Source: an uncultured Pseudomonadota bacterium (lineage in GTDB: Bacteria; Pseudomonadota; Alphaproteobacteria; Rs-D84). Taken from it: a stretch of 64,000 bases of DNA. The translations under genes and the position numbers were made by a program. The notes below the pieces were generated by a model that was not told the DNA's origin, searched no databases, and saw only the letters and a program-made list of their open reading frames with translations. The DNA lies in contig CADARU010000004.1 of the NCBI GenBank assembly GCA_902790415.1, positions 397 to 64,396 of the forward strand. The letters are read 5' to 3'. Below are positions 24,727-57,153 of the stretch, piece by piece; positions within the stretch are counted from its first letter, which is position 1, and the number at the start of each line of letters is the position of its first letter.

Positions 24727-25488
24727 ATGATATCAATATTCAAGTATATTTGTATTGGTATGTCGGCATTGTGTATAATGCCGGTTTTTGGTGCAAATCC
24801 CCAGATTGTAAAATTATTAAGAGAAAAACAGCAAAAATATGCCCAGTTAGAACAATGTACCAAAAAAGTTAACGGCTTTAAAATAGCGGGTATATCAACA
24901 CTTGGTTTAACCGCGGCGGGTATAGGTGGAAATATTGCATTGGCATCCAAAAATAAAAAATTAGATACGGAAATTAATTCAATCACGACAGAAATAGAAA
25001 CAGAGAAAGAAAAATTAGCAAAAACGAACGATGAAATAGCCACCGAAAAATTAAAAATCCAACAAAAACAAGAAAAGTTAATAGAAGCAGAACAGCAAGA
25101 AACAACAAAAGCGGAACAAACAAAAGGTAGTGATGAACAAGGAAAAGAAGAAGTTCAAGAAAATAAAAAAGTAACAGGCAATGAATATTTTGTGTCTGCC
25201 GAAGGAATCAGGTATAAAAGTTTGGATGATTGTCCGGGCAATGCTTTTTCAAAACTACAAGAGTATTGTCCAGAGTGTGCAAATGATATTGTGCGGGAAC
25301 AACTTTGTTCTTATGATATAGATGAAAGTCATGGGGTGTTCGGTTTTGAAACAGATATATTGGGTCCAAATACATGGTGTTATTATAAGCAAAATGAGTA
25401 TAGTTATGCCGCGGTAATGATGGATGACTGTGTGTGTGCCAAAATTCAGGAATTAGAAAGGGCAAAAAAACAGAACAATAAAAAATGA
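24727..25488 (+). CDS. Membrane/secreted coiled-coil protein with a Gly-zipper-like segment and a Cys-rich C-terminal domain
   Basis: N-terminal hydrophobic signal MISIFKYICIGMSALCIMPVFGA, a G/A-rich segment IAGISTLGLTAAGIGGNIALA, an E/K/Q-rich coiled coil, and Cys residues in the last ~100 aa. SD gagagg lies upstream. Confidence 0.6.
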   Translation: MISIFKYICIGMSALCIMPVFGANPQIVKLLREKQQKYAQLEQCTKKVNGFKIAGISTLGLTAAGIGGNIALASKNKKLDTEINSITTEIETEKEKLAKTNDEIATEKLKIQQKQEKLIEAEQQETTKAEQTKGSDEQGKEEVQENKKVTGNEYFVSAEGIRYKSLDDCPGNAFSKLQEYCPECANDIVREQLCSYDIDESHGVFGFETDILGPNTWCYYKQNEYSYAAVMMDDCVCAKIQELERAKKQNNKK

Positions 25489-25591
25489 TTTTTTTTGTTT
25501 AGTATTTAAAATATTTTTTTGTCAATGTTTTTTCTTGACAACAAAAAGTAATTGTCCTATATTCTGTTTGTGATAACCAAAAGGGTCAATT

Positions 25592-25915
25592 ATGAAGAAA
25601 ACAATTTTGTCTGGTTTGATGGCGGCATTGGTATCGGTTGCGGCAAATGCATCTGATGGTGGTGTTTACGTTGAAACAGAAACTTTTACAAATCATATCA
25701 GATACAACAACAATAACACAGTGTATGTTAATGAAACAGCACCGGCGGTTGTAAGACGTCCTTGTGCATCTGCACAACCGGTTCGTGTTAAAACACACAC
25801 CGAAGTTATTGACCATTATCAGTTGTATCGTCCGGTAACCGTTTATCAACCGGCAGGAACTTATTCTGAACGCCGCGTTGTTGCAAATGAACCATGTGGT
25901 CGTTGCAACTGGTAA
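25592..25915 (+). CDS. Small secreted protein (unknown function)
   Basis: Signal peptide MKKTILSGLMAALVSVAANA; 107 aa; ends EPCGRCNW. A terminator follows at ~25935..25968. Confidence 0.55.
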   Translation: MKKTILSGLMAALVSVAANASDGGVYVETETFTNHIRYNNNNTVYVNETAPAVVRRPCASAQPVRVKTHTEVIDHYQLYRPVTVYQPAGTYSERRVVANEPCGRCNW

Positions 25916-26017
25916 TTGTTTGTTACTAAAATTTAAAGCCCTGCAAATTTGTGGGGCTTTTTTTATTTTTCACTTTTCATCATCGTGTTTTTGTGGTAAT
26001 ATGTGTTGAACAGAGAG

Positions 26018-28156
26018 ATGAAAAAAATATCAAAGATTTTGTTTACTGTCGTTTGCGCCGGTGTGTGTGGTGTTGCGTTGGCTAATGTTGCAACAACGGC
26101 TGGTAATAATTTAACCGCGTATAACGGCGGTGCTTCTAGCAATAACAATAAATGGAATACGATGTCTAATTCGCGTTCCGGGGCGACATCTTCTGCGCCG
26201 GCAACGGCAAATTTTGGAAACTGTAATGCGGTTGTGTTACGCTGTGCATCGCCAAAATGTTCGGGTGGTGGATGTATGGATATGATGGTGGCACGTTCCA
26301 TTGTTGCCGGATGTGTGGCATCAAACGAATCGTGCAAGAAACATGGCGACCCATTGATTGATGCGATTACCGGGCAAATTGTTGCTCAATCGACTGCGAC
26401 CGCAAATGCCCAGGCTGCGGCGGCGGCGGCATCACAGAGTAATGCCCAGGTTGAACAAATGCAGATGCAAATGCAACAGATGCAGGCATCTATGCAAGAA
26501 TCTATGAACGCAATGCAGGCGCAAATGGCGCAACAAAACGAAATGGCAAATCAACAGTTGCAATCTGCGTTGGCGGAACAGCGTTCTGTGATGGAGGCGG
26601 CCCAGGCCGCGGCGGCGGAATCTGCGACAAATGCGGTTGCAACCGCCGGGATGGAGGGTATGACAGTTGCCGAACAGGTTGCGGCAAAGAATAATATGGA
26701 TGTTGATGTTTTGGTGCGTTCGCAGAGTTTGGGACAAATAGAGACCGCGGTTGAAGATGCAACAAAAAAAATGGATGATTTAAAAAAAGTTTTATCTCGT
26801 TTGTTGGAATATGGCGGTTGTGATTCTTCGGCAAATCATTGTGAGGGGCCAAAGCGTGTAAAGAAATTTAAAGATATTGCAAACGAATTTTTCGAACCGT
26901 ATGAAGGTGTTGCGGACAGTATGTATGATGCAATGATGTTGGCAATGAGTTTGGGTGTTGATATTAGTCAGGTTGTCATGATGCTTAGTGGTTCTTGTAA
27001 TATGTGGGGCAAATATATGTGTGATGTTTGTTCAACAAGTGATGTGAATGCAGGAAACTGTTTAAGTGTTGGAAACAAGTATTATTATCGTGTGGAAACA
27101 TACAGTCAAGCAGATGGTGTCGAAGAAAGTAAATTGGGCCGGGTAAAGCCGCAACAGCCACACTGTCGTTTGGTTGAAATTTTATCTGATGGTGCCGAGG
27201 TTCAACGTGAATGGATTGATTCTAATTCCGGAATAACCGGCAATGTTCAGGTTGCCTGTGCAACGGATACTTTGGGTAATATCGGTATATTCAGCCGTCG
27301 TAATAAAATGAATTCATTAATCGATATTGAATCTGTCCGGGATTTAGTCAACCAAGATGCGTATGGTGTGTGTAAAAAAGACGATGACAGAACACTTTGT
27401 ATGAATTATTGCGCAACCAGAAAAACGGACAATTGGTATCAGAACTTGCAAACGGCGGTAAAAAACAAAACTATAAAAAAAGCCAATTGTAAAAAAGAGG
27501 CAAATGGCCGTTTAACCGATGCCGGCAGCCAGAATGAAGATGTGTGGCCGAATTGTACGTATTTTCCGCAAGAATATGCGTTGTGTACGGTGCATGCGTA
27601 TAATATCGGTAAAACCTTGACGCAAGAGATGACTTCCAGCGAATTGTCAGAGATGCAAGAAGTTATTGCGTTAAAATCTACGGTGATTGCACAAATGATA
27701 AAGCAACAATATGATGCATTGAATACGATGGTTAAACAGTTGAAAACCCATTTGCAAAAGGCCGTATTAACAACAAAAACCGAAATCGCAACTGGTAACG
27801 TTTCAGGGGGCAGTTCGGGTGGTTTGTCTTTGTCGGCAAAACAAGATGGAATTTACTTGGCTGGTGCCCAAAATTGCAAGATGATAACGTCCGGTGGAGT
27901 ATCCGCAGCAGCGCAGTGTTTGCAAACTAATGCGAATTTGGCTATGAATGCGCAAAGTAAGGCAGATGCGCGTAAACAGTTAAAGGAAGATTTGGAAATT
28001 GCTAAGCGTTGGGGATTGTGCGGAACAGATAATAAGTGCTGTAACAACGAAAATGATCCGAAATCTTGTGCACAAGAGTTACTTATGAACATTTCAATAG
28101 AATTGCAAAAAAAGCAGGATGAACGTGATAGCAGGATGTATTATCCTGGCAGGTAA
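26018..28156 (+). CDS. Large secreted cysteine-rich protein with Q/M/A-rich coiled coil (member of the Cys-motif family)
   Basis: ATG at 26018 (the ORF-track start 26003 is a GTG five codons upstream). Signal peptide MKKISKILFTVVCAGVCGVALA. N-terminal motif NCNAVVLRCASPKCSGGGC, a QMQMQMQQMQASMQ stretch, and many Cys residues throughout. Confidence 0.65.
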   Translation: MKKISKILFTVVCAGVCGVALANVATTAGNNLTAYNGGASSNNNKWNTMSNSRSGATSSAPATANFGNCNAVVLRCASPKCSGGGCMDMMVARSIVAGCVASNESCKKHGDPLIDAITGQIVAQSTATANAQAAAAAASQSNAQVEQMQMQMQQMQASMQESMNAMQAQMAQQNEMANQQLQSALAEQRSVMEAAQAAAAESATNAVATAGMEGMTVAEQVAAKNNMDVDVLVRSQSLGQIETAVEDATKKMDDLKKVLSRLLEYGGCDSSANHCEGPKRVKKFKDIANEFFEPYEGVADSMYDAMMLAMSLGVDISQVVMMLSGSCNMWGKYMCDVCSTSDVNAGNCLSVGNKYYYRVETYSQADGVEESKLGRVKPQQPHCRLVEILSDGAEVQREWIDSNSGITGNVQVACATDTLGNIGIFSRRNKMNSLIDIESVRDLVNQDAYGVCKKDDDRTLCMNYCATRKTDNWYQNLQTAVKNKTIKKANCKKEANGRLTDAGSQNEDVWPNCTYFPQEYALCTVHAYNIGKTLTQEMTSSELSEMQEVIALKSTVIAQMIKQQYDALNTMVKQLKTHLQKAVLTTKTEIATGNVSGGSSGGLSLSAKQDGIYLAGAQNCKMITSGGVSAAAQCLQTNANLAMNAQSKADARKQLKEDLEIAKRWGLCGTDNKCCNNENDPKSCAQELLMNISIELQKKQDERDSRMYYPGR

Positions 28157-30106: not shown

Positions 30107-30126
30107 TTTGTCTGGTTATCAAATAA

Positions 30127-30162
30127 AAGAGGTCCATATTTTGTGGGCCTTTTTTGTTTTTT
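30127..30162 (+). terminator. Rho-independent terminator after rplQ
   Basis: Stem aggtcca-tattttg-tgggcct (one G-U pair) followed by tttttgtttttt. Confidence 0.65.
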
Positions 30163-30166
30163 ATTC

Positions 30167-30195
30167 TTGTATGAAATTGTATATTATGATAGAAT
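30167..30195 (+). promoter_or_regulatory. Sigma70-like promoter for the 940-aa gene
   Basis: TTGTAT (30167..30172), a 17-nt spacer, then TAGAAT (30190..30195). Confidence 0.45.
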
Positions 30196-30219
30196 AATAG
30201 GGATTATAGAGGGAAAGAA

Positions 30220-33042
30220 TTGAAGAATTTACTGATTTTGGTGGCTTTTCTTGCCTGTTCGTTTAACGCAGTTGCGGCGGTGCGCACGCCTGCGCGTGGT
30301 TCTTCGGGGACAAATGCATCTGGGAACACGACGGTTTCTGCACGTGCGGCGGTGCGTGGTGCGCGCAGTGCGACAACCTCGAACGTGGCACCTGCAACGT
30401 CTGGGGCGGGGGCCGGTGCGGTGGTGCAACGTCGTGGCGCGCCTGCGGCGGCAACAACATCATCCGGTACAACGGTCGGGCGCAGTGCGACACCTGTAAA
30501 AACAACGGCGGCGCGTGCGGCAAAACAGAACGTTGTTGCAGGTGGGACCAAGGTTGCGTCTGCAGCGCAAAATACGTTGGTTGATGAAACCTGTCGCCAG
30601 AAATTTGATGGTTGTATGGATTCTTTTTGTATGATGGAAAATGCCAGTGGTGGCCGCTGTTTGTGCAGTGATAGAAACAAAGAATTAAACACGTTGTTGG
30701 CACAAATAGAACGTCTGGATGCACAAAGTTATAAAATGGCAACCGAAGGTGTCGAAAAAATCGAAATGGGTGAAAATGCCGATGCGGTAATGGCCAGTGC
30801 CAAGGCAATAACAAAATCTTTGGATGGTAAATCCGAAGAAGATTCAAAGACCAAACGTCGCAAATTAAACCTAGATGCGTGGAAAAACGTTTCTGTGGAT
30901 GAAGATTCTATTTTTGGTGAAGATGACGGTGAAAAACGTATAGAAGACCAGGAAGGCGATGCGTTGTTTGCGATGTCTTATGATTTGTGTGTTGCGCAGA
31001 TGCCGGAATGTTCGTCTAATTTTAGTATGTTGGGGTCGTTGTATCGTCAACGTGTGCGTTCTGATTGTACGGCATTTGAAAACAGTTTAAAGCAAAAACA
31101 AACAGAAAGCCAACAGAAGTTGGCCGCGGCCGAGGCCGCCATGCGCGAAGCCGCATTGGAACAATATAAATCTGCGAACAAGTATGATTTGGGACAATGC
31201 ACAATTCAATTCAAGCAATGTATGCAAACAACGGCCGGTTGTGGTGAAGATTTTACCGGGTGTGCCGGTTTGGCCGCGGCAGAAGAGGCGGTAACCAAGA
31301 AAAATACCAAGTCAAAAAAGGCGAAACAAACAACTATCCAGGGGACAGTGTCGTCTATTACTATTGCGGCGGCGACATTTGATACGTTGGAATCCAAGAA
31401 ACCGTTATGTATGGATGTAACCAAAAACTGTGTCAATGTTCGGGACCAGGTTTGGAATACCTTTTTGCGTGAGGTTGCGCCGGAATTAAAATCTGCGGAA
31501 TTATTGGCGGAATCTAATTTGCGTACGTCATGTATTGGTAATATTGCGCAGTGTTTTCAAAAGGCATGTAAAGATAATATTGATCCAAATGATGAAGAAG
31601 GGTCTTATGATATGTGTCTGTCGCGCCCAGAAACCGTAGAATCGCTGTGTAAGGTTGAAATACAACCATGTGTGGCCGCAGAACCCAAGATTATGGATTA
31701 TGTTCGTGCAAAGTTGGCATCTATGCGTGTTGATGCGTGCACCAAAGAGGTCAAAGATTGTTTACAGGATGAAAATCGCTGTGGCAAGGATTACGCGGGT
31801 TGTATCGGTTTAGATACGGACACAATCGTCCGTTTGTGCCCCCCCGAAAAATTGACCGCATGCTACCAAGAATATGGGGGTAAAAAATCTACTGTCGATG
31901 ATGCATTAACCCGCATGGTCGACGGCATATTCTTAAACATTGATAATTCAATATTAGACCAATGTCAAAAATTGGCCCAAAACAAGGTAATTGAAATATG
32001 TGGCTCGTTGTCAGAAACAGAATGTCAGGCGTTTTCTTCCGATGATTCTATTGGTACAGATTCCCTGTTATCTTATAAAGATAACAATGGTAACATAACA
32101 ATTGACGGTTTGTTAGATTTTAATGCTCTGACTTCAAAAGAAACGTCCAGTGCTAAAAATGGCATATTATACACAGTGGATGCAGATGCATATTTGCAAA
32201 AAATTAATCAAAGTGGTGCAGAATTTGCAACCCAAGAACGTATCAAGGCGGCAATTAATGGTGTAAAAAACAAAATTGATCAGCGGATAAAGTTGTTAAA
32301 TATGGACCCAAAAATTTCTATGTGTATTAACGGTCGTGATACATCGCAGTTGTCCAGAAATTCACAAAAGGCATCCAGTAATTTGGCAGAAAACGGTCGT
32401 ACAAATGCACGTTTCCCACATCTGTTGGACAGTTATCAATTAATGATTTTAAACGCAGGAATTTCCCAAGCCAACAAAAATTATTCCAAAAAGAAAGACA
32501 GTTTGGTCGCGGATGCGATAGAGTCGCGCAGCGATGATGAAAAGGCCGCAATTTGTGCCGCAATGGCAATTAACGAAGGTGCCGCGGTTTGTAAAGAATA
32601 CAAGGCAGACGATGGAGGTAACGCGGTTTGTACGAACTATGAGCCCAAGGCCCCTTTAAGCAATCTGTTTGTTGATAGCGATCAACAAATTGGCTTGGAT
32701 GCGTCCGGTACAAAAATGGTTATCCAAGGTGCAGACCTAGAAAAGAAATTAACGGCCATCACTAATGGTAAGGGCGAATTTATTCAAACAGATAAAGATG
32801 GAAATATGGTTGGCCGTATAAATATGACCGCCGCATATAGTGCCGATAACAACATCTGTAAAATTGTCACAGAAACAATTATGTGTAAAAACATAGAGGC
32901 CATTTTAACAGATGTGAAGAAATTAAAAACGAAAGATGAAAATGGTAACAAAATTAAAAAGAAAAAATATAAAGAATATCAGGGCTCTCAATGTACAGAA
33001 TTTGCAGACCCGATGATATCCAGTGATGAAATTAGATTATAG
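30220..33042 (+). CDS. Large secreted cysteine-rich protein (940 aa) with repeated C-x6-C-(M/L)-x3-4-CG-x2-(F/Y)-x2-C motifs
   Basis: TTG start 6 nt after SD GAGGG. Signal peptide (M)KNLLILVAFLACSFNAVAA. An R/A/T/S/G-rich low-complexity region is followed by multiple Cys motifs: TCRQKFDGCMDSFC, QCTIQFKQCMQTTAGCGEDFTGC and ACTKEVKDCLQDENRCGKDYAGC. Confidence 0.7.
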   Translation: MKNLLILVAFLACSFNAVAAVRTPARGSSGTNASGNTTVSARAAVRGARSATTSNVAPATSGAGAGAVVQRRGAPAAATTSSGTTVGRSATPVKTTAARAAKQNVVAGGTKVASAAQNTLVDETCRQKFDGCMDSFCMMENASGGRCLCSDRNKELNTLLAQIERLDAQSYKMATEGVEKIEMGENADAVMASAKAITKSLDGKSEEDSKTKRRKLNLDAWKNVSVDEDSIFGEDDGEKRIEDQEGDALFAMSYDLCVAQMPECSSNFSMLGSLYRQRVRSDCTAFENSLKQKQTESQQKLAAAEAAMREAALEQYKSANKYDLGQCTIQFKQCMQTTAGCGEDFTGCAGLAAAEEAVTKKNTKSKKAKQTTIQGTVSSITIAAATFDTLESKKPLCMDVTKNCVNVRDQVWNTFLREVAPELKSAELLAESNLRTSCIGNIAQCFQKACKDNIDPNDEEGSYDMCLSRPETVESLCKVEIQPCVAAEPKIMDYVRAKLASMRVDACTKEVKDCLQDENRCGKDYAGCIGLDTDTIVRLCPPEKLTACYQEYGGKKSTVDDALTRMVDGIFLNIDNSILDQCQKLAQNKVIEICGSLSETECQAFSSDDSIGTDSLLSYKDNNGNITIDGLLDFNALTSKETSSAKNGILYTVDADAYLQKINQSGAEFATQERIKAAINGVKNKIDQRIKLLNMDPKISMCINGRDTSQLSRNSQKASSNLAENGRTNARFPHLLDSYQLMILNAGISQANKNYSKKKDSLVADAIESRSDDEKAAICAAMAINEGAAVCKEYKADDGGNAVCTNYEPKAPLSNLFVDSDQQIGLDASGTKMVIQGADLEKKLTAITNGKGEFIQTDKDGNMVGRINMTAAYSADNNICKIVTETIMCKNIEAILTDVKKLKTKDENGNKIKKKKYKEYQGSQCTEFADPMISSDEIRL
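31824..31946 (+). repeat. Recombination handle, copy 1 (inside the 940-aa gene)
   Basis: 123 nt with 117/123 identity to the reverse complement of 34524..34646, including perfect runs of 50 and 44 nt. All six differences are synonymous third-position changes. Confidence 0.9.
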
Positions 33043-33081
33043 AACCAAAAACGCGCCTATTGGCGCGTTTTTGGTTCTATA
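33038..33081. terminator. Bidirectional terminator between the convergent 940-aa and 504-aa ORFs
   Basis: Perfect palindrome tatagaaccaaaaacgcgcc-tat-tggcgcgtttttggttctata. Confidence 0.8.
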
Positions 33082-33103
33082 ATGTTTATGCACCTTTGTT
33101 ACC

Positions 33104-34654
33104 CTAGGCATTGCCGTGGTTACTTGACCCACCACCGGTTCCAGACGAACTACTGCCCCCCCCACTTCCATTTTTCTTTGGTTTCGGCTCTCGTTTAGGT
33201 TTATTATTATTATTGTTGTTGCTGTTAATATTGGTATCACCATTACCAACAGCGGACTGACCTCCATCTTTGCTTGCGGAACCGCTACCTACATTAGAAA
33301 CACTGCTGTTATCAATATTACCACGATTACCGATGCTGCCAATGGATGCCCCACCAAAACCAAGACTGGTACTTTTGCTGTTATCGACACTGCTGTTATC
33401 AACATAGTTGGATGTCAAATTTGAACGTGTTATGTTACCAGCAATGACCTCGCCCGATGACATGTTAATTAACTGTTCGGTAACAATTGGCTCTTGGAAA
33501 CTGTTACACACAGACCCCTTGTAATTTGTTACCGATGTGCCAACGTTAACACCACCGCCAATACCGGCGTATTCTGCTTGAACCCCAACATCAACACTTT
33601 TTCCATCGGAAACAGTTGTCATTGCCGCACATGCATATATCGTACGTGTTATACGACAAACCTTTGGACCGGCCTCGTATGCGGCCGAAACCGTTTCTTT
33701 GCCCACCATGGTTTCTTCGTCTTCTATTTGTCTTCTTTTATCGACACGACGCGGAACCTCTTTTAATGCAGACGAAATTTTTGCGGTCAGCACACGTTCG
33801 GTTGTATTCTTTTGTTTTAATGCCTCTAATAAATCACTGCTGTCTGGGCCACCAGAAATAGATACCTGACAATCGGTTGGAACGACATTGGAACGCGTTG
33901 CAGATTCACCCATGGTGATGCTATCAAAATCATCAACCAGCGCCAGACGATTACAATAAATGGTGTTTTTGTAATCTTCAGCCGCATTTTTTCCTTCGTT
34001 TGTCGCGTTCACAAACATTTCTGTATATTTGGTATTATAATTGGTTTCTGCGGCGCTTAGTATAGAATCCGCAATAATCGCAGAATAATTATCCAACAGA
34101 TGCGGAAAACGTGCGGCAGTGCGTTTCTTGGACCCTGTGATTTGTCGCATATCACGTCCCGTTACACACATATTAACGGTTGGGTCGGCCAACAATACAT
34201 CAAATTTGCGTTTTATTGTATTAAATATTCCTTGTAATGTGGCAGATTTACCGTTACCGTTGGGACACACATCATAACTGTTTAAATCAATATTGTAATA
34301 TTCAATCGGATTTTTATCAGATGAATTTGACACCAAATCTAATTTAACTTTGCCAAATGTTACCAAACCATCAATGATAGTTGTACCTCTTGAATTCGTA
34401 TAGGACCGCAAAGATTCTACCCCTAAATTAGGGTCATCTGTAACAGATATACATGCGGTTTCATCGCCACAAATTTCAACAAATTTTTTACGTGCGGCAT
34501 TTTGACAGGCCGTTAACATACTGTTATCGATGTTTAAGAATATGCCGTCGACCATGCGGGTTAATGCATCATCAACGGTGGATTTTTTACCCCCATATTC
34601 TTGGTAGCATGCGGTCAATTTTTCGGGGGGACATAAACGGACGATTTTGACCCG
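33104..34654 (-). CDS. 5'-truncated paralog of the C-terminal half of the 940-aa protein (promoterless, no signal peptide; candidate silent cassette)
   Basis: The frame is open from just after an in-frame TAG (34655..34657). There is no ATG and no SD; the ORF-track start at 34618 is a TTG that corresponds to an internal Leu of the paralog. The first 41 aa (IVRLCPPEKLTACYQEYGGKKSTVDDALTRMVDGIFLNIDNS) are identical to residues within the 940-aa protein. Beyond that, similarity is only distant (FPHLLD, ICG, IDGL). The C-terminus is a low-complexity N/S/G tail. Confidence 0.55.
   Translation of the reverse strand, partial: RVKIVRLCPPEKLTACYQEYGGKKSTVDDALTRMVDGIFLNIDNSMLTACQNAARKKFVEICGDETACISVTDDPNLGVESLRSYTNSRGTTIIDGLVTFGKVKLDLVSNSSDKNPIEYYNIDLNSYDVCPNGNGKSATLQGIFNTIKRKFDVLLADPTVNMCVTGRDMRQITGSKKRTAARFPHLLDNYSAIIADSILSAAETNYNTKYTEMFVNATNEGKNAAEDYKNTIYCNRLALVDDFDSITMGESATRSNVVPTDCQVSISGGPDSSDLLEALKQKNTTERVLTAKISSALKEVPRRVDKRRQIEDEETMVGKETVSAAYEAGPKVCRITRTIYACAAMTTVSDGKSVDVGVQAEYAGIGGGVNVGTSVTNYKGSVCNSFQEPIVTEQLINMSSGEVIAGNITRSNLTSNYVDNSSVDNSKSTSLGFGGASIGSIGNRGNIDNSSVSNVGSGSASKDGGQSAVGNGDTNINSNNNNNNKPKREPKPKKNGSGGGSSSSGTGGGSSNHGNA
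34524..34646 (-). repeat. Recombination handle, copy 2 (5' end of the truncated cassette)
   Basis: Inverted copy of 31824..31946. Similarity stops abruptly at 34646/34647, 3 codons downstream of the in-frame stop codon that opens the frame. Confidence 0.9.
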
Positions 34655-34807
34655 CTAAAATTTTGAAAAATTTTTTTCAGGTTTTCTGCGGTGTTGCCGG
34701 CGATTATATAGGGTTACGGCCGATTTTAAAAAATTCCGGATTTCCAGGCTTTTTATATTCTAATGAAAAATACGTATAATTTGCATAATAATTACGGAAT
34801 GTAAAAT

Positions 34808-34837
34808 AAAAAAATGCCCGAATTTTCGGGCATTTTT
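34808..34837. terminator. Bidirectional rho-independent terminator downstream of the 768-aa gene
   Basis: aaaaaaatgcccg-aatttt-cgggcattttt. Confidence 0.8.
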
Positions 34838-34861: not shown

Positions 34862-37168
34862 CTAGCGTGTTGTTGCGCCCTGGGTTCCAGAACCGCCTGT
34901 TCCTGGGGTTGATGTCGGGCATGTGGCATCATTGTCGACAATGCCATAACGTTTTGCGGTGGTCATATTGATACCGCATGTTGCGCCGTTCATTCTGCAT
35001 GCAGACACAACTTCACGTGGGGTATAGATATTTTCAGGCATATATCCAACCGTTGCATTCGTACATTCATCGGCACTGGTAAATGTTTTGCAAATTGCAT
35101 CCCAGTTACCACAGTTCGTTACAATCAGTGCAGATGAACTGGCCGGTGTTTTCGGAACCTGTAATGCCCATTTGACATAGAAATCACGCAGACGGTCAAT
35201 AGTGTATGATTTATTCAACTCTACGCGATCCAAATCATCACCAACGCGACAGTTGATTCTGTTCTTTTCAACGAACGCGGTAATCAACGTTGCGGTTCCG
35301 CCGGCCGCTGCACCAGATGCCGCACCAATCGCGGTTGTTTTTGCACGATTGTCTTTGGTGCCGGCAAATACACTATCCAATCCTGCAAATGCGGTGCGAA
35401 TCTTATTTACCTCGTTTTCAAAGTCACTCTTGATAATACAGTTGTGATCAGATGCTTCGCAATATACACTGTCAGAATCTTTGATTGCCTGGTTCAGTTC
35501 TTTGAAACTGCAACGTGGAGACAAGGTTTCGTGAATGTCTGGATTTGCCACAACCCTGGAATCAATTTCAATTTTGAAAGGAACCTTGGTTTGATAATTA
35601 AGTATCTCGCATTTACAGCTTTTTTCATTGGTGCATTGGTTCATTGTTTCTGTGCATTTTTTGATTATTTCATCAGTTACAGAAACCCCGTATGTTTCGC
35701 ACTGTCCGGCCAAATAGCGTTCAGTATTCAAATCTAAGACAACACCATAGGTACGTGCGGTGTCTTCGCAATTTTTGATTGCTTCTTGGCCATCGTTACC
35801 AATTTCGTACAATGTACGTAATTGTTCGCATGCATCTTTGTTTATAATTGCGCCAGTACTGGTTAAATTGCCACTGTCTAATTCTTGTGCGACATCAGAA
35901 ATAGCATGGTCTTTTAAGAATTGACGTAATACACCGATGTTTTTGCTGTCGCGCAACGCATGCGTCAAATCGCGACGTTGTTTTTCATCGCCACAATCAA
36001 ACTCAGATGCCTTGTGTCCAGCCGCAAAACCAATTCCGGCACCAACCGCTGTTCCAACCGGAACTGCGATAATCGCCGCCTTTTTGGTGTCGTTCATCAA
36101 CGAGAACCCGAACAAATCTTTGTTACATGTAAAGGTTTCGCCGGTTGCGCGCCATACCTGGGCAGGACCCTTGTCGCCAATTCCAAATACGTCATTGGTG
36201 ATTAATTTATCTTTGTTATATGCCGCGACACGCAATAAACATTGTGCGTTTTGGGCATCCCAACGCGCATAGTATCCACGATTTGCATCGTATGTGCCGT
36301 TGGTGTTGACTTCTGCGCCTTGGGGGTTAGGTTTTATCAGTGGCGCATCTTTATCTTTGGGTTTCTGACTGTTGTATGCGGCAACCGCTTGTGCATACTC
36401 AGAATTAGTATTATCTAACTTGCCAACTGCATTAAATGATGCACCATACGTGTTGCGATCTAACAATAAACAAGTGTTTTCCGCCTGGATAGGGGTAAGA
36501 CCGGTTCTGCTTAATACAAATGCATAGTACGCAGGTTGAACGCGACGTGCGTTAAAGTCCAACCATACATCACGTGCAGATTGGTACATTGGGACACAAC
36601 CGCTGTTATCGCTCTTGGGTAATTTTACGTTAGATATACAGTATTCAACCTGGCTGATACACAAATTCATACCATTAAATATAGATTCACGTAATTCTGC
36701 ATCAAACATAGAATTTATACCGTTCGGCAATGCGCCGCTGTTAACACAGGCCGCAATATCCGCCATACAAGAATCCACCGTATAACTAAGGTCACACAAA
36801 CCGTTTGGTGTCGGATTCGGGTTCGGATTAGGATTCGGACCAGGATTCGGATCAGGATTTGGGTTCGGATTAGGATTAGGGTTTGGGTTAATCGGTTCCG
36901 GTGTTGTCGGAACTTCGTTTATAGTATTAATCTCGTTACCATTAGACGGTAATTTATTGCCAATAACATTTAATGGTAAAATCGGCATAGAAGGCATACG
37001 TTGTACATTGGTTGCACCACGACCCTGATTTTGATTATTAGATGCGCCGCCGCGTGCCGCACTTGTTGTCGCACCACCACGCGGAGAGTCCGCAAAAGCG
37101 ACACATGTGAACATTAAAACAGCCAGGCTAACCACACTCTTTTCCAATGTTTTCAGCAGAATATGCAT
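34862..37168 (-). CDS. Large secreted cysteine-rich protein (768 aa) with (PN)n linker and two Gly-zipper-like segments
   Basis: Strong SD AAGGAGG. Signal peptide ...VVSLAVLMFTCVAFA, an R/G/S/T-rich segment, INPNPNPNPNPNPDPNPGPNPNPNPNP, Cys motif CDLSYTVDSCMADIAAC, and G/A-rich segments AVPVGTAVGAGIGFAAG and AIGAASGAAAGGTATLITAF. Confidence 0.7.
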   Translation of the reverse strand: MHILLKTLEKSVVSLAVLMFTCVAFADSPRGGATTSAARGGASNNQNQGRGATNVQRMPSMPILPLNVIGNKLPSNGNEINTINEVPTTPEPINPNPNPNPNPNPDPNPGPNPNPNPNPTPNGLCDLSYTVDSCMADIAACVNSGALPNGINSMFDAELRESIFNGMNLCISQVEYCISNVKLPKSDNSGCVPMYQSARDVWLDFNARRVQPAYYAFVLSRTGLTPIQAENTCLLLDRNTYGASFNAVGKLDNTNSEYAQAVAAYNSQKPKDKDAPLIKPNPQGAEVNTNGTYDANRGYYARWDAQNAQCLLRVAAYNKDKLITNDVFGIGDKGPAQVWRATGETFTCNKDLFGFSLMNDTKKAAIIAVPVGTAVGAGIGFAAGHKASEFDCGDEKQRRDLTHALRDSKNIGVLRQFLKDHAISDVAQELDSGNLTSTGAIINKDACEQLRTLYEIGNDGQEAIKNCEDTARTYGVVLDLNTERYLAGQCETYGVSVTDEIIKKCTETMNQCTNEKSCKCEILNYQTKVPFKIEIDSRVVANPDIHETLSPRCSFKELNQAIKDSDSVYCEASDHNCIIKSDFENEVNKIRTAFAGLDSVFAGTKDNRAKTTAIGAASGAAAGGTATLITAFVEKNRINCRVGDDLDRVELNKSYTIDRLRDFYVKWALQVPKTPASSSALIVTNCGNWDAICKTFTSADECTNATVGYMPENIYTPREVVSACRMNGATCGINMTTAKRYGIVDNDATCPTSTPGTGGSGTQGATTR
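36808..36892 (-). repeat. Hexanucleotide (GGATTN/GGGTTN)n tandem repeat encoding (Pro-Asn)n
   Basis: The plus strand reads gtgtcggattcgggttcggattaggattcggaccaggattcggatcaggatttgggttcggattaggattagggtttgggtt. Confidence 0.85.
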
Positions 37169-53854: not shown

Positions 53855-56603
53855 ATGAGTGGAATAATAAAAGTTCGCGGTGCGCGCGAAAACAATCTTA
53901 AAAATGTTGATTTAGACATACCAAAAAATAAGTTGGTGGTCTTTACTGGCGTGTCCGGTTCGGGAAAATCTTCGTTGGCATTTAATACTATTTATGCCGA
54001 AGGACAACGGCGTTATGTTGAATCGCTGTCCAGTTATGCACGTCAATTTTTAGATATGCAAAAAAAACCAGATGTTGATTTAATAGAAGGTTTGGCCCCG
54101 GCAATTTCAATCGAACAAAAAACAACGTCAAAAAACCCACGTTCTACGGTTGGAACAGTTACAGAAATTTACGATTATTTGCGATTGTTATGGGCACGTA
54201 TTGGGGTGCCTTATTCGCCGGTAACCGGTTTGCCAATTAAATCCCAGACCATTGCAGAAATGGTGGAAATGACAATGGATATTCCCGCTGGGGTGCGCGC
54301 GTATATTATGGCACCGTTGGTTCGGGACAGAAAAGGCGAATATAAAAAAGAATTGGCTTTCTTGGTCAAACAGGGATATCAACGCGTAATTGTTGATGGC
54401 GAACTGTACGATTTGTCCTATGTGCCGCCGTTGGATAAAAATAAAAAACATAATATTTTTGTCATAATCGATAGAATTCAAATGCCGGCATCTGATGCAT
54501 CGGATGAAGATAAGGAAGAATTTAAGTCGCGCGTGTATTCGTCTTTTGAGGGGGCTTTGCGACTTGTTCCGGGTTCGGTATTGTTACGCCGTTTGGATAC
54601 AAACGAAGATGTTTTATATTCGCAAAGTTATGCCTGTCCGGTTAGCGGTTTTGCCGTTCCAAAAATAGAACCCAGGTTATTTTCTTTTAATGCGCCAATC
54701 GGTGCGTGTCAGGGGTGCGATGGGTTAGGTGTGCAATTAAATATGTCGCCTGATTTGGTTGTTCCTGACCCGTCAAAATCGATATTAGATGGCGCAATCG
54801 CGCCATGGTCGCGTGGCGGTATGTTAAGTCAATTTGAACATTTGGTTGATGCACTGCATAAACAATTTAAAATTCCTTTGTCTAAACCTTGGCATACGTT
54901 AACCCAAGAACAGAAAGATTTGGTGCTGTATGGAACTGGGGACAAACCAATAAAAATAAATTGGAACGGATTTATTTATGAAAAACCTTTTGAAGGTGTG
55001 ATTCCAAATATTGAACGTCGTTGGCGCGAATCTGATTCCGAATCGGTCAGGGCGGAATTGGCAAAATACCAATCTGAAAAACCATGTCCGATGTGTCATG
55101 GAAAACGGTTGAATATTCAGGCATTGTGTATAAAAATAAATGGTGCCGATATTATTGATGTCTGTGATATGTCAATAGATGATTCTTATAATTGGTTTAT
55201 GGATTTGCCAAACCATTTGACACAAAAAGAAAGAGACATTGCAAAGGGGCGAGGCACAGCGTATTCGTCTTGCATCACAAATTGGCAGTGGTCTGTCCGG
55301 GGTATTGTATGTGTTGGATGAACCGTCAATTGGTCTGCATCAAAGTGATAATGACAAATTATTAGATACACTGAAAATGTTGCGTGATAAAGACAACAGT
55401 GTGATTGTTGTTGAACACGATGAAGATGCGATGCGCGCGGCCGATTTCTTGGTTGATATTGGTCGTGGGGCCGGTGTAAATGGTGGAAACATTATTGCCG
55501 CAGGTACCCCGGCGCAGGTTATAAAAAACAAAGATTCTTTGACGGGGCAATATTTATCTGGGAAAAAGAAAATATCTGTACCGAAACAGCGGCGCGCGGG
55601 TAATGGCGAATTTATAACTGTTCGTGGTGCACGTGAAAACAATCTGAAAAATATTGATGTAGAATTTCCGTTGGGTAAATTTATTGCGTTGACCGGGGTA
55701 TCTGGGTCTGGAAAGTCCACATTATTATTAGATACCTTGTATCCGGCACTGATGCGCGCGTTATATAATTCTAAAATAGAATGTGGGGCGCACGATATTA
55801 TAACCGGTATGGAAAATATTGACAAGGTTGTTGATATAGATCAATCGCCTATTGGGCGCAGTCCGCGCAGTAATCCGGCAACATATACAGGTGTATTTTC
55901 GAATATACGCGATTTCTTTGCCGAATTACCCGAAGCCAAGGCGCGCGGCTATGGCCCGGGGCGTTTTTCGTTTAATGTCAAAGGTGGGCGATGTGAAGCA
56001 TGCCAGGGCGATGGTCAGATAAAAATAGAAATGAATTTTTTGGCCGATGTTTATGTCCAATGTGATAAATGTCATGGTGCGCGTTATAACGAAGAAACCT
56101 TGGCGGTAAAATACAAAGGTAAATCTATTGCGGATGTTTTGGATATGACCGTTGATGAAGCATATCGTTTCTTTATAAATCATCCACAAATCAGTCGCAA
56201 GTTAGAATTGTTGAAACGTGTCGGTTTGGATTATATTAAGTTGGGACAAAGTTCTTTGGATTTATCCGGGGGCGAGGCGCAACGTATAAAACTGTCCAAA
56301 GAATTATCTGCGCGCAGTACCGGGCAAACATTATATATCTTGGATGAACCGACCACTGGTTTGCATTTCGAAGATATTAAACAACTGTTGGGTGTATTGC
56401 ACGAGTTGGTAGAGCAGGGAAATACCGTAATTGTTATTGAACATAATTTGGAAGTTATAAAAACCGCAGATTGGATTATTGACCTGGGGCCAAATGGTGG
56501 TGCCGGTGGTGGCCAGGTTGTTGCCGTTGGTACACCCGAGACGGTGGCAAAAAATCCTGATTCATTGACCGGGCAATATCTTAAGAAATACTTGGACAAA
56601 TAG
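53855..56603 (+). pseudogene. uvrA: Excinuclease ABC subunit UvrA, disrupted by an out-of-frame internal deletion near 55240 (or a sequence error)
   Basis: Two overlapping ORFs in different frames (53855..55321 and 55239..56603) together cover UvrA. The first ends ...[10 protein letters not shown] then out-of-frame residues. The second begins at ..[16 protein letters not shown]. About 30 residues normally lying between these points in UvrA (..ILKEI..RL.FL..VGL.YL.L.R...TLSG) are absent. Confidence 0.75.
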
Positions 56604-56649
56604 TTTTTATAAGTTATTATAAATAATGAAAAACATAAGGAGAAAAATA

Positions 56650-57153
56650 ATGTTTGGATTTGGTAAAAAGAAAAAAGTCGAATCAACCCAAGAAGTAAAA
56701 AACGATGCCTCAGAACCAAAAATGCCCAAGGGCATGAAGGAAACCGCCGAACGTATGATGAACGGTCAATTTGATATGAACGATATGTTGGCGCAATTAA
56801 AACAGATTAAAAAAATGAGCAATTTTAGTGGGCTGCTTAAAATGGTGCCGGGGATGTCTGGTGCGGTTTCGGCAATGAAGGAAAAAATCAAAGACGGCAG
56901 TGTTGATGCACAAATCAAAATATTGGAAGCAATGACTGCCGCCGAACGTGCCGACCCAGAAAAGATTTTTGCAAATGCCAAAGCCCGTATTGCACAAACC
57001 GCAGGGGTAACCGTTCGTGAAGTTGAACATATTATCAAACAATATTTAAAGATGAAACAACAAATGGCCTTGATTCAACGTATGGGCGGGATGGAGGCCG
57101 TAATGCAAAAAATGCAATCGGCCCAAGGCGGCGTTCCGGGTGCAAATAATTAA
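56650..57153 (+). CDS. Stand-alone SRP54 (Ffh) M-domain-like protein; no N or G domain
   Basis: ATG at 56650 follows SD AAGGAG. Ffh M-domain features are present: G.FD.ND.L.QL.Q.KKM......LKM.PGM, E.MT..ER..P..I....K.RIA...G..V.EV...IKQY..M, and a Met-rich tail. The upstream gene is uvrA, so no NG domain is adjacent. Confidence 0.65.
   Translation: MFGFGKKKKVESTQEVKNDASEPKMPKGMKETAERMMNGQFDMNDMLAQLKQIKKMSNFSGLLKMVPGMSGAVSAMKEKIKDGSVDAQIKILEAMTAAERADPEKIFANAKARIAQTAGVTVREVEHIIKQYLKMKQQMALIQRMGGMEAVMQKMQSAQGGVPGANN

Follow-up and report, generated by a model that had tools for sequence, protein, structure and literature searches.

The window analysed here is a stretch of 64,000 nucleotides (nt) of contig CADARU010000004.1 (assembly GCA_902790415.1) from an uncultured alphaproteobacterium of the order Rs-D84. 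Members of this order have genomes under 1 Mb and are presumed to be obligate symbionts or parasites of the animal gut, with a lifestyle that depends on other cells (PMC12306168). The subject of this study is gene A, which encodes a putative exported protein of 940 amino acids (aa), together with copy B, a silent and 5'-truncated open reading frame (ORF) on the opposite strand that carries an alternative C-terminal module. Both begin their C-terminal module with the same short segment, termed the handle (hA in gene A and hB in copy B), and the two handles form an inverted repeat. The positions of all features are given in Table 1; loci of related genomes are numbered L and homologous proteins P.

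Gene A is located directly downstream of the ribosomal-protein/secY/rpoA/rplQ cluster, and synteny with rpoA-rplQ is a feature of its family. The terminator of the L17 gene at 30121-30159 precedes the promoter-like element of gene A, which would drive whichever module is joined to the N-terminal half of the protein (N-half). The constant part consists, in this order, of a signal peptide (~aa 1-20), a low-complexity linker rich in A, T, S and G and a helical, cysteine-rich N-terminal half; it is 96-99% identical among strains with different C-terminal modules. The near-identical strains L004 and L005, for instance, carry a module A2 in place of module A1 of the window, with an identity of 40-52% between the two. 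A search at an E-value of <=0.001 revealed 1053 homologues, nearly all of which are full length (900-1050 aa) and derive from uncultured gut Alphaproteobacteria. At least 357 GTDB stretches encode a relative of gene A, and many of the genomes are titled Candidatus Enterousia. An alignment of 21 homologues contains 33 invariant cysteines, and the product of gene A is probably an exported, disulfide-bonded protein, which may also be exposed on the cell surface. No meaningful Pfam match was obtained for gene A, copy B or the neighbouring 768-aa gene. The AlphaFold2 model of gene A, which was based on the 21-sequence alignment, is mediocre (predicted local distance difference test score 61.7, predicted template modelling score 0.36), and a Foldseek search of the PDB with this model returned nothing below E = 0.4.

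Table 1. Features of the gene A/copy B locus (positions in the window; a dot marks a feature without strand).
Feature	Position	Strand	Properties	Basis
Putative promoter-like element upstream of gene A	30167..30195	+	TTGTAT-17 nt-TAGAAT	sequence reading, inferred only
Shine-Dalgarno sequence and start codon of gene A	30208..30222	+	AGAGGGA, TTG	sequence reading
Gene A	30220-33042	+	940 aa, TTG start	sequence reading
Constant part of gene A	30220..31823	+	aa 1-535, single copy	translation, homologue alignment, model
Handle A (hA)	31824..31946	+	arm in the expressed gene, encodes IVRLCPPEKLTACYQEYGGKKSTVDDALTRMVDGIFLNIDNS; weaker similarity on to 32004	
C-terminal module A1	31947..33042	+	currently expressed; aa 577-940 and stop	translation, comparisons
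Palindromic bidirectional intrinsic terminator	33036..33083	.	22-bp stem, 4-nt loop; common to A and B	repeat and terminator searches
Module B	33104..34523	-	silent, ~470 codons, Gly/Ser/Asn-rich tail, intact ORF	translation, selection test
Handle B (hB)	34524..34646	-	inverted arm, in frame with module B; 117/123 identical to hA	
In-frame TAG	34655..34657	-	three codons upstream of hB; marks 5' truncation of copy B	sequence reading
Promoter-like element upstream of hB	34703..34730	-	TTTAAA-16-TATAAT (10/12); outside the invertible segment; significance uncertain	promoter scan
Intrinsic terminator of the upstream 768-aa gene	34810..34837	-	insulates copy B from read-through	
768-aa gene	34862..37168	-	cysteine-rich secreted ORFan, neighbour outside the putative switch	syntenic with gene A across the order

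An earlier reading of the window, made from the sequence only, had described the inverted handle and proposed that it serves as a recombinational switch. Its description of the handle agrees with alignment, shuffled sequences and translation: the two cores (31824-31946 and 34646-34524) are identical at 117 of 123 positions (95.1%), contain perfect runs of 50 and 44 nt and differ at six positions, all of which are synonymous because both arms are translated into the same 41 residues (IVRLCPPEKL...FLNIDNS). The 50-nt run is present exactly twice in the window, once on each strand (0 expected in 100 shuffles). A repeat search of the window placed the inverted arms at 31818-32004 and 34466-34652, which corresponds to 187 nt with 83% identity. 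The abrupt end of similarity that had been reported for both handle borders does not hold on the module side, where weaker similarity continues for ~58 nt past the 123-nt core. Outside the handle, the two proteins are only distantly related, as had been proposed (~28-34% identity, with the islands ARFPHLLD, EICG and IDGL).

On the minus strand, the reading frame of copy B extends from 34654 to 33104 and is cut off by the in-frame TAG listed in Table 1, three codons before the similarity to gene A begins. In L005, this TAG is absent and the frame is open for 32 more codons, none of which encodes a Met (ATG) residue. No Shine-Dalgarno sequence could be seen by eye in front of the in-frame ATG and TTG codons of copy B in the window, including TTG 34618 and ATG 34555, and copy B has neither a signal peptide nor an N-half, although the family is cysteine-rich and exported. 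The TAG and the lack of a Shine-Dalgarno sequence, a signal peptide and an N-half had been recognised in the sequence-only reading; the additional statement that copy B is promoterless goes beyond the evidence, since a sigma-70-like match (10/12) is located at 34730-34703. Such matches are common by chance in the AT-rich window, in which 31 were found and 19.9 expected. The region upstream of B was also compared with the NUDIX promoter of sister lineages; the homology is partial only and was not accepted as evidence for transcription of B. Gene A and copy B converge on a shared bidirectional terminator, a perfect palindrome that occupies the 61-nt interval between their stop codons (33042 and 33104). 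Due to its symmetry, this terminator works in either orientation of the segment. Equivalents of the terminator that protects copy B from the upstream side adjoin the silent cassettes of L053, L092 and L093.

It had been predicted that an inversion of 31947-34523 would fuse the N-half in frame to module B. Indeed, inversion of this segment in silico results in an open N+B reading frame of 1048 aa and a silent A cassette of 408 codons. The 1048-aa fusion is 78% identical over its full length to a natural protein, P0004 (1052 aa). P0004 and the related proteins P0005, P0007 and P0008 (1052-1057 aa) possess a B-like module, which is 51-56% identical to B and ~28% identical to the module of gene A; their N-halves are 96% (P0004) and 77-80% (P0005, P0007, P0008) identical to that of the window. 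P0004 is a recombinant of N- and C-terminal parts: its N-half is only 86% identical to that of P0007, and its module shares 97% identity with the P0007 module. In three sister lineages, a NUDIX hydrolase gene occupies the place of the silent copy B (L002 3780-4250, L086 5610-6080 and L088 3778-4248), and the expressed gene of these lineages carries a B-like module; a NUDIX homologue is absent from the window.

The ORF of copy B is intact in three strain types, those of L004, L005 and the window. The window and L005 differ at 11 sites outside the handle, nine of them synonymous and two non-synonymous (p ~5e-5, binomial calculated by hand, with 77% of the changes expected to be non-synonymous under neutrality). 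When the handle is included, 13 synonymous and three non-synonymous differences are found (p = 1.1e-6), and omega of the whole ORF is 0.16. Thus, the silent copy B is under purifying selection, which is what a periodically expressed cassette predicts for a cysteine-rich module that lacks both its head and its signal peptide. A second line of evidence is provided by the handles. Within a core of 105 nt, hA and hB of L005 show no difference, and each of them differs from hA of the window at 10 and from hB of the window at 5 positions. Furthermore, hB differs between the window and L005 at 4.8% of its sites and the adjacent body of B at ~1%, and hA of L004 is a mosaic of three polymorphic segments. 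The handle copies within a genome are more alike than orthologous copies and have therefore undergone concerted evolution, by gene conversion and/or crossing-over between the arms; in other words, the handles recombine and exchange sequence within genomes.

The proposal to search related genomes for the same handle and for further cassettes was followed by self-comparison and tblastn of 79 GTDB loci (taken from the best 80 of at least 357), and further loci were reached through cassette-only ORFs in a library of 1.84 billion proteins. The inverted-handle architecture was found in L010, L053, L063, L092, L096 and others, always at the corresponding place in the protein. These loci belong to other species of Rs-D84/Enterousia, in which the main protein shares ~45-50% identity with gene A. 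The inverted repeat has a length of 97 nt in L053 (92.8% identity), 184 nt in L063 (95.7%) and 75 nt in L092 (97.3%), and the handle has decayed to 77% in L093-L095. Decayed or mini versions are present in L076, with a handle identity of 72.5%, and in L069, where a 57-nt handle is joined to a mini-module. L010 contains a perfect repeat of 352 nt (100%) in a divergent topology, in which the promoter and the N-half would flip. The 3,040-bp contig L096 consists of a B-type module, a spacer/terminator and a C-type module and is bounded by perfect inverted handles of 119 nt. Three classes of modules can be distinguished: the beta-rich A type, the B type with its Gly/Ser/Asn tail and the C type, which has a hydrophobic, anchor-like stretch.

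The A and C types are placed reciprocally in different species: L053 expresses N+A and stores C, and L092, L093, L094 and L095 express N+C and store A. In L092 and L093-L095, the C modules are 61-65% identical to the stored module of L053, and the stored A modules are 47-50% identical to the expressed module of L053. The 5' boundary of the cassette is the same in L053 and L092-L095 (MA[H/D]N..YVY, directly after the terminator hairpin), and the silent cassettes of L053, L092 and L093 start 7-15 nt after this hairpin. On a tree of the N-halves of the 79 loci/species, the type of the fused module (A versus C) changes many times; only a loose association was found between module type and the orientation of the gene relative to rpoA-L17 and the 768-aa gene. 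The close pairs L010/L041 and L063/L092 were considered as simple inversion states and rejected, as their modules differ outright. Pattern searches added little: a cassette-start pattern (ATGGCGCATAATG...) recovered L053 and L063 only, a degenerate handle pattern gave 0 matches in GTDB representatives and 0 in JGI metagenomes, and the L096 handle gave 0 matches in both collections. This last search did not even return the L096 contig itself, and both collections therefore lack the relevant organisms.

Several observations on related loci stand beside this survey. At least 12 more clusters at 50% identity, among them P0137, P0136 and P0146, comprise ORFs of 350-480 aa that contain the C-terminal half only and start in or just before the handle region; in P0137, an A-type module follows the same leader as the C-type cassette of L076. 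In many species (L007-L085 generally), inversions have reordered the block that comprises rpoA-rplQ, gene A and the genes of 768 and 382 aa. A comparison of L008 with L045 shows an inversion of the entire gene with respect to the flanks on either side, and the two loci carry different module types. In L057, L064, L072, L079 and L010 (3651-6374), full-length paralogues of gene A lie in tandem or next to each other, and direct repeats reach 1.8 kb at 98% identity.

The anatomy of the locus, the in-frame compatibility of the two modules, the selection on B, the concerted evolution of the handles, the recurrence of the architecture and the reciprocal placement of modules in other species are best explained by a two-module, gene-altering inversion device, and we lean towards this explanation. 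C-terminal modules would be inverted and exchanged through the handles at low frequency by RecA-type recombination. In this model, a single-copy promoter, signal peptide and N-half (30220-31823) would serve two alternative C-terminal modules, the expressed module A and the silent, 5'-truncated and terminator-insulated module B, which are arranged tail-to-tail around the palindromic terminator and both open with a copy of the in-frame handle (~105-123 nt), the two copies being inverted. RecA-type homologous recombination between the handles would invert 31947-34523, thereby joining the N-half to module B to give the 1048-aa protein and parking module A in the silent site. Repair of heteroduplexes during such events may keep the handles nearly identical, and the same handles may double as crossover points for new modules imported from other strains. 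The rate is probably low, unlike that of a fast invertase-driven switch, and variants might be enriched by selection, e.g., by host immunity, phage or a partner cell.

A number of findings weigh against this explanation. All seven assemblies that hold B (four window-type contigs, two L005-type contigs and L004), which represent three haplotypes, show one and the same orientation; an inversion difference within a species was not seen, and reciprocal states were found between species only. Among 5.8 billion clusters, no module with an identity of at least 90% to B was found on an N-half, and no silent-A ORF of ~400 aa of this strain was found. A search with the whole of B gave 3 matches and was swamped by the low-complexity tail. 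The search with the core of B returned P0121 only, the L005 version of this cassette, and no N+B fusion; this word-indexed search missed P0004 (52% identical) and is therefore reliable for close matches only. The cassette is kept in only ~6 of the 79 sampled GTDB species. Moreover, strains differ by replacement of modules: the flanks of the window and L005 are 99-100% identical and the region 31652-33203 only 44-79%, which means that module A was replaced and not inverted, and L063 and L092 differ in both modules with flanks that are 89-99% identical. Because the two handles face in opposite directions, DNA from outside could be inserted either way round, and the reciprocal states seen between species could therefore have arisen without an intramolecular inversion.

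The absence of a recombinase gene from the window, which had been noted before, was confirmed by a Pfam search of ~33 ORFs, in which no tyrosine or serine recombinase (Phage_integrase, Resolvase, Recombinase) was detected. The same holds true for 20 ORFs beside the cassettes of L010, L053, L063 and L076. The handles range from 75 to 352 nt and have different borders in different species, on the 5' as well as the 3' side; a short core common to them did not stand out. A sequence common to several handles, GGCATATTC, was considered as a recombinase core and rejected, because it is equally present in loci without a cassette. The lack of a recombinase, the variable lengths and borders of the handles and the missing short core point to low-rate, RecA-type recombination rather than to an invertase; recA itself is not located in the 64-kb window, and RecA dependence is suggested by these features of the handles. 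The switch of the sequence-only reading is thus partly supported, by the geometry of the locus, the purifying selection, the exchange between handles and the recurrence; we infer reversible switching in a living population rather than observe it, because the other orientation, the N+B protein and a recombinase were not found and strains differ by replacement.

Alternatively, the locus might undergo population-level allele exchange only. In this case, the handle would simply be the most conserved stretch in which imported DNA recombines, copy B would be a by-product of one event, kept similar by occasional gene conversion, and there would be no inversion switch today. The replaced tract between the window and L005 runs from the handle into the tail of B, P0004 combines a window-like N-half with a P0007-like module, L063 and L092 are unlike in both modules despite their similar flanks, and the seven assemblies share a single orientation, all of which would be expected from allele exchange. 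What it leaves unexplained is why a 5'-truncated copy of ~500 codons without an evident start stays intact under purifying selection, why terminator-insulated cassettes persist in the diverged L053, L092 and L093 with reciprocally placed modules, and why the handles are homogenised within genomes. As the sole process, allele exchange is therefore considered unlikely; it is complementary to inversion and does not exclude it. Alternatively, the silent copy B could donate its sequence to the expression site by non-reciprocal gene conversion, as in the pilS, vlsE and msp2 systems, with the handle and the terminator as the ends of the conversion tract and without any inversion. This would be in line with a truncated, selectively maintained copy that lacks a recognisable translation start, with the position of both modules between a 5' handle and the same 3' palindromic terminator and with the conversion tracts evident in the handles. 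However, conversion would generate two copies of B and lose A, and two identical modules were seen in none of the cassette-bearing loci. In addition, the homology at the 3' end is confined to the 48-nt hairpin, and the reciprocal A/C and C/A placement is a prediction of reciprocal exchange. A donor role is considered improbable.

It is about as hard to regard copy B as an independent gene with its own promoter and a product of ~480-500 aa without the N-half. The sigma-70-like match at 34730-34703 could serve as such a promoter, gene callers predict products of 479-504 aa, B is under purifying selection, and ATG is the first codon of the cassette in L053, L063 and L092, with a GAAGGGGA motif six nt upstream of it in L063. 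However, promoter-like matches arise frequently by chance in the window, the TAG stands three codons before the homology, and neither TTG 34618 nor ATG 34555 has a Shine-Dalgarno sequence. A signal peptide is missing as well, though the module belongs to a cysteine-rich exported protein. In L092, L093 and L053, the first codon lies 7-15 nt past the hairpin, which leaves no room for a promoter or ribosome-binding site; in L093, this first codon is a TTG next to the hairpin, and the cassette 'start' therefore looks like the T-tract of the terminator. We consider an independent gene improbable. The probability that the inverted repeat is an assembly artefact, i.e., a chimeric or fold-back contig, is close to nil. 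The sequences originate from metagenome assemblies, and assemblers apparently struggle with the handles, given that the L004 contig ends inside hB and the L096 contig ends in both handles. The same arrangement is nevertheless present on four window-type contigs and on three contigs from other studies with independent sequence differences, and the arms are separated by 2.5 kb of unique sequence, with correct synteny between and around them.

The proposed inversion device shares features with several known systems. The sap cassettes of Campylobacter fetus are 8-9 complete ORFs that share ~600 bp at their 5' end. In the 1990s, Dworkin and Blaser reportedly described how a segment that carries the promoter inverts in a RecA-dependent manner between opposed sapA homologues, which have a conserved 5' region in common. 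Like sap, the window locus would depend on a homology-driven, recombinase-independent inversion, a single promoter and alternative secreted or surface cassettes with a variable C-terminal part, and it contains the long homologous inverted segments without a dedicated recombinase that characterise this type. The topology of L010, in which the promoter and N-half would flip between opposed modules, is also sap-like. In contrast to sap, the N-terminal 535 aa are present in a single copy, the shared segment lies in the middle of the gene, and there is one spare, incomplete module; the promoter and N-half of the window lie outside the segment, so that the modules would flip, and no homology to SapA exists. 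In its mechanism, the proposed inversion comes nearest to sap, which, of the likenesses drawn in the sequence-only reading, fits better than the shufflon or Gin-type site-specific systems. The G segment of Mu (Gin), the C segment of P1 (Cin) and the pilV shufflon of R64 (Rci) use sites of 26-31 bp (or 19 bp) and a dedicated serine or tyrosine recombinase that is encoded alongside. These tail-fibre segments and the pilV shufflon likewise combine a constant N-terminal part with alternative C-terminal parts by inversion of tail-to-tail segments, but neither the short crossover sites nor the recombinase of the Gin/Cin/Hin and Rci systems were found at the window locus.

The hsdS inversion loci, such as ivr/SpnD39III of Streptococcus pneumoniae, normally encode a recombinase, and their inversion was shown experimentally; inversion on longer repeats reportedly persists without a local recombinase. 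They resemble the window locus in the swap of half-genes, in expressed versus truncated silent copies and in in-frame inverted repeats of tens to hundreds of nt, with the difference that a DNA specificity subunit is altered there and an exported cysteine-rich protein here. Antigenic variation at pilE/pilS of Neisseria, vlsE of Borrelia and msp2 of Anaplasma, itself a reduced-genome alphaproteobacterium, is RecA-dependent and non-reciprocal, relies on homology on both sides and usually draws on many donors. The promoterless, 5'-truncated donors of these systems, which are kept intact by selection through periodic expression, are comparable to copy B. Here, only one donor exists, it is inverted, and it has one long homology, and reciprocal inversion is therefore predicted.

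In its sequence attributes, the locus matches gene-altering inversions. In the work of Milman, Yelin and Kishony (2023, PMC9881135), verified cases are predicted by three attributes: the inverted repeat is long, the coding sequences lie close together, and one partner is cut off at the repeat. The window locus has a shared in-frame inverted repeat, the asymmetry and the short distance, and its inversion in silico gives an intact alternative allele. As in the verified cases, one arm of the repeat lies within a complete gene and the other opens a 5'-truncated partner on the opposite strand, and the distal coding part would be swapped; the category of partial intergenic invertons described by Chanin et al. 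(2023 preprint, doi 10.1101/2023.03.11.532203) applies to this layout as well. Verified gene-altering inversion loci are enriched in adjacent recombinase genes, whereas the window locus has no such gene nearby and its handles of 75-352 nt show no evident short site. Further differences are that orientation variation is known from no assembly of the species, that the target is an ORFan family without a Pfam match and that the host belongs to an uncultured, reduced-genome order. The locus is thus rated as a further case of a known kind of device; the protein family is new, and the bacterial order is unstudied.

Several other features of the window and its relatives deserve mention. The 768-aa gene next to copy B has a strain-variable patch of its own (35304-36003), which is 60-82% identical between strains, with 97-100% identity on either side; together with the 382-aa gene, it stays linked to gene A across the order. 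Between 34862 and 49650, the window contains large ORFs without a real Pfam family (768, 382, 298, 329, 652, 293, 1305 and 675 aa), and only a weak ankyrin match was obtained for the 1305-aa ORF. Three ORFans of 253, 107 and 717 aa without a Pfam match are inserted between rpsK and rpoA in the ribosomal-protein operon (24727-28156), an arrangement that is conserved in relatives. In L093 and L094 (6993-7985 in both), which belong to one Enterousia lineage, a gene with a Fic/RhuM domain is located just upstream of rpoA. The uvrA gene appears to be divided between two ORFs that overlap and use different frames (53855-55321 and 55239-56603, together 53855-56603), which could reflect a frameshift, a pseudogene or an assembly error. 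An ORF of 175 aa (56626-57153) encodes only the signal-peptide-binding (M) domain of Ffh/SRP54, and no N or G domain was seen upstream.

The conserved, cysteine-rich exported protein of gene A is encoded beside the ribosomal-protein/rpoA operon and is present in at least 357 genomes at species level; its C-terminal half undergoes swaps both within strains and between them. Across Rs-D84, this lineage-defining disulfide-rich exported protein might act as a recombinase-free module exchanger and constitute the main system of antigenic or partner-specificity variation, a broader idea that we put forward tentatively and with more doubt than confidence. As part of this idea, RecA may toggle the C-terminal module via the inverted mid-gene handles, pairs of modules may be imported in either orientation, and a switch between anchored and non-anchored modules may change the location of the protein. 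If the inversion takes place, a minimal genome would here possess a gene-altering switch that is driven by homology and independent of a recombinase, and the locus would add a new family to the targets of such inversions. The C-terminal module would then be the part of the protein that is exposed to selection, be it by host immunity, phage or the receptor of a partner.

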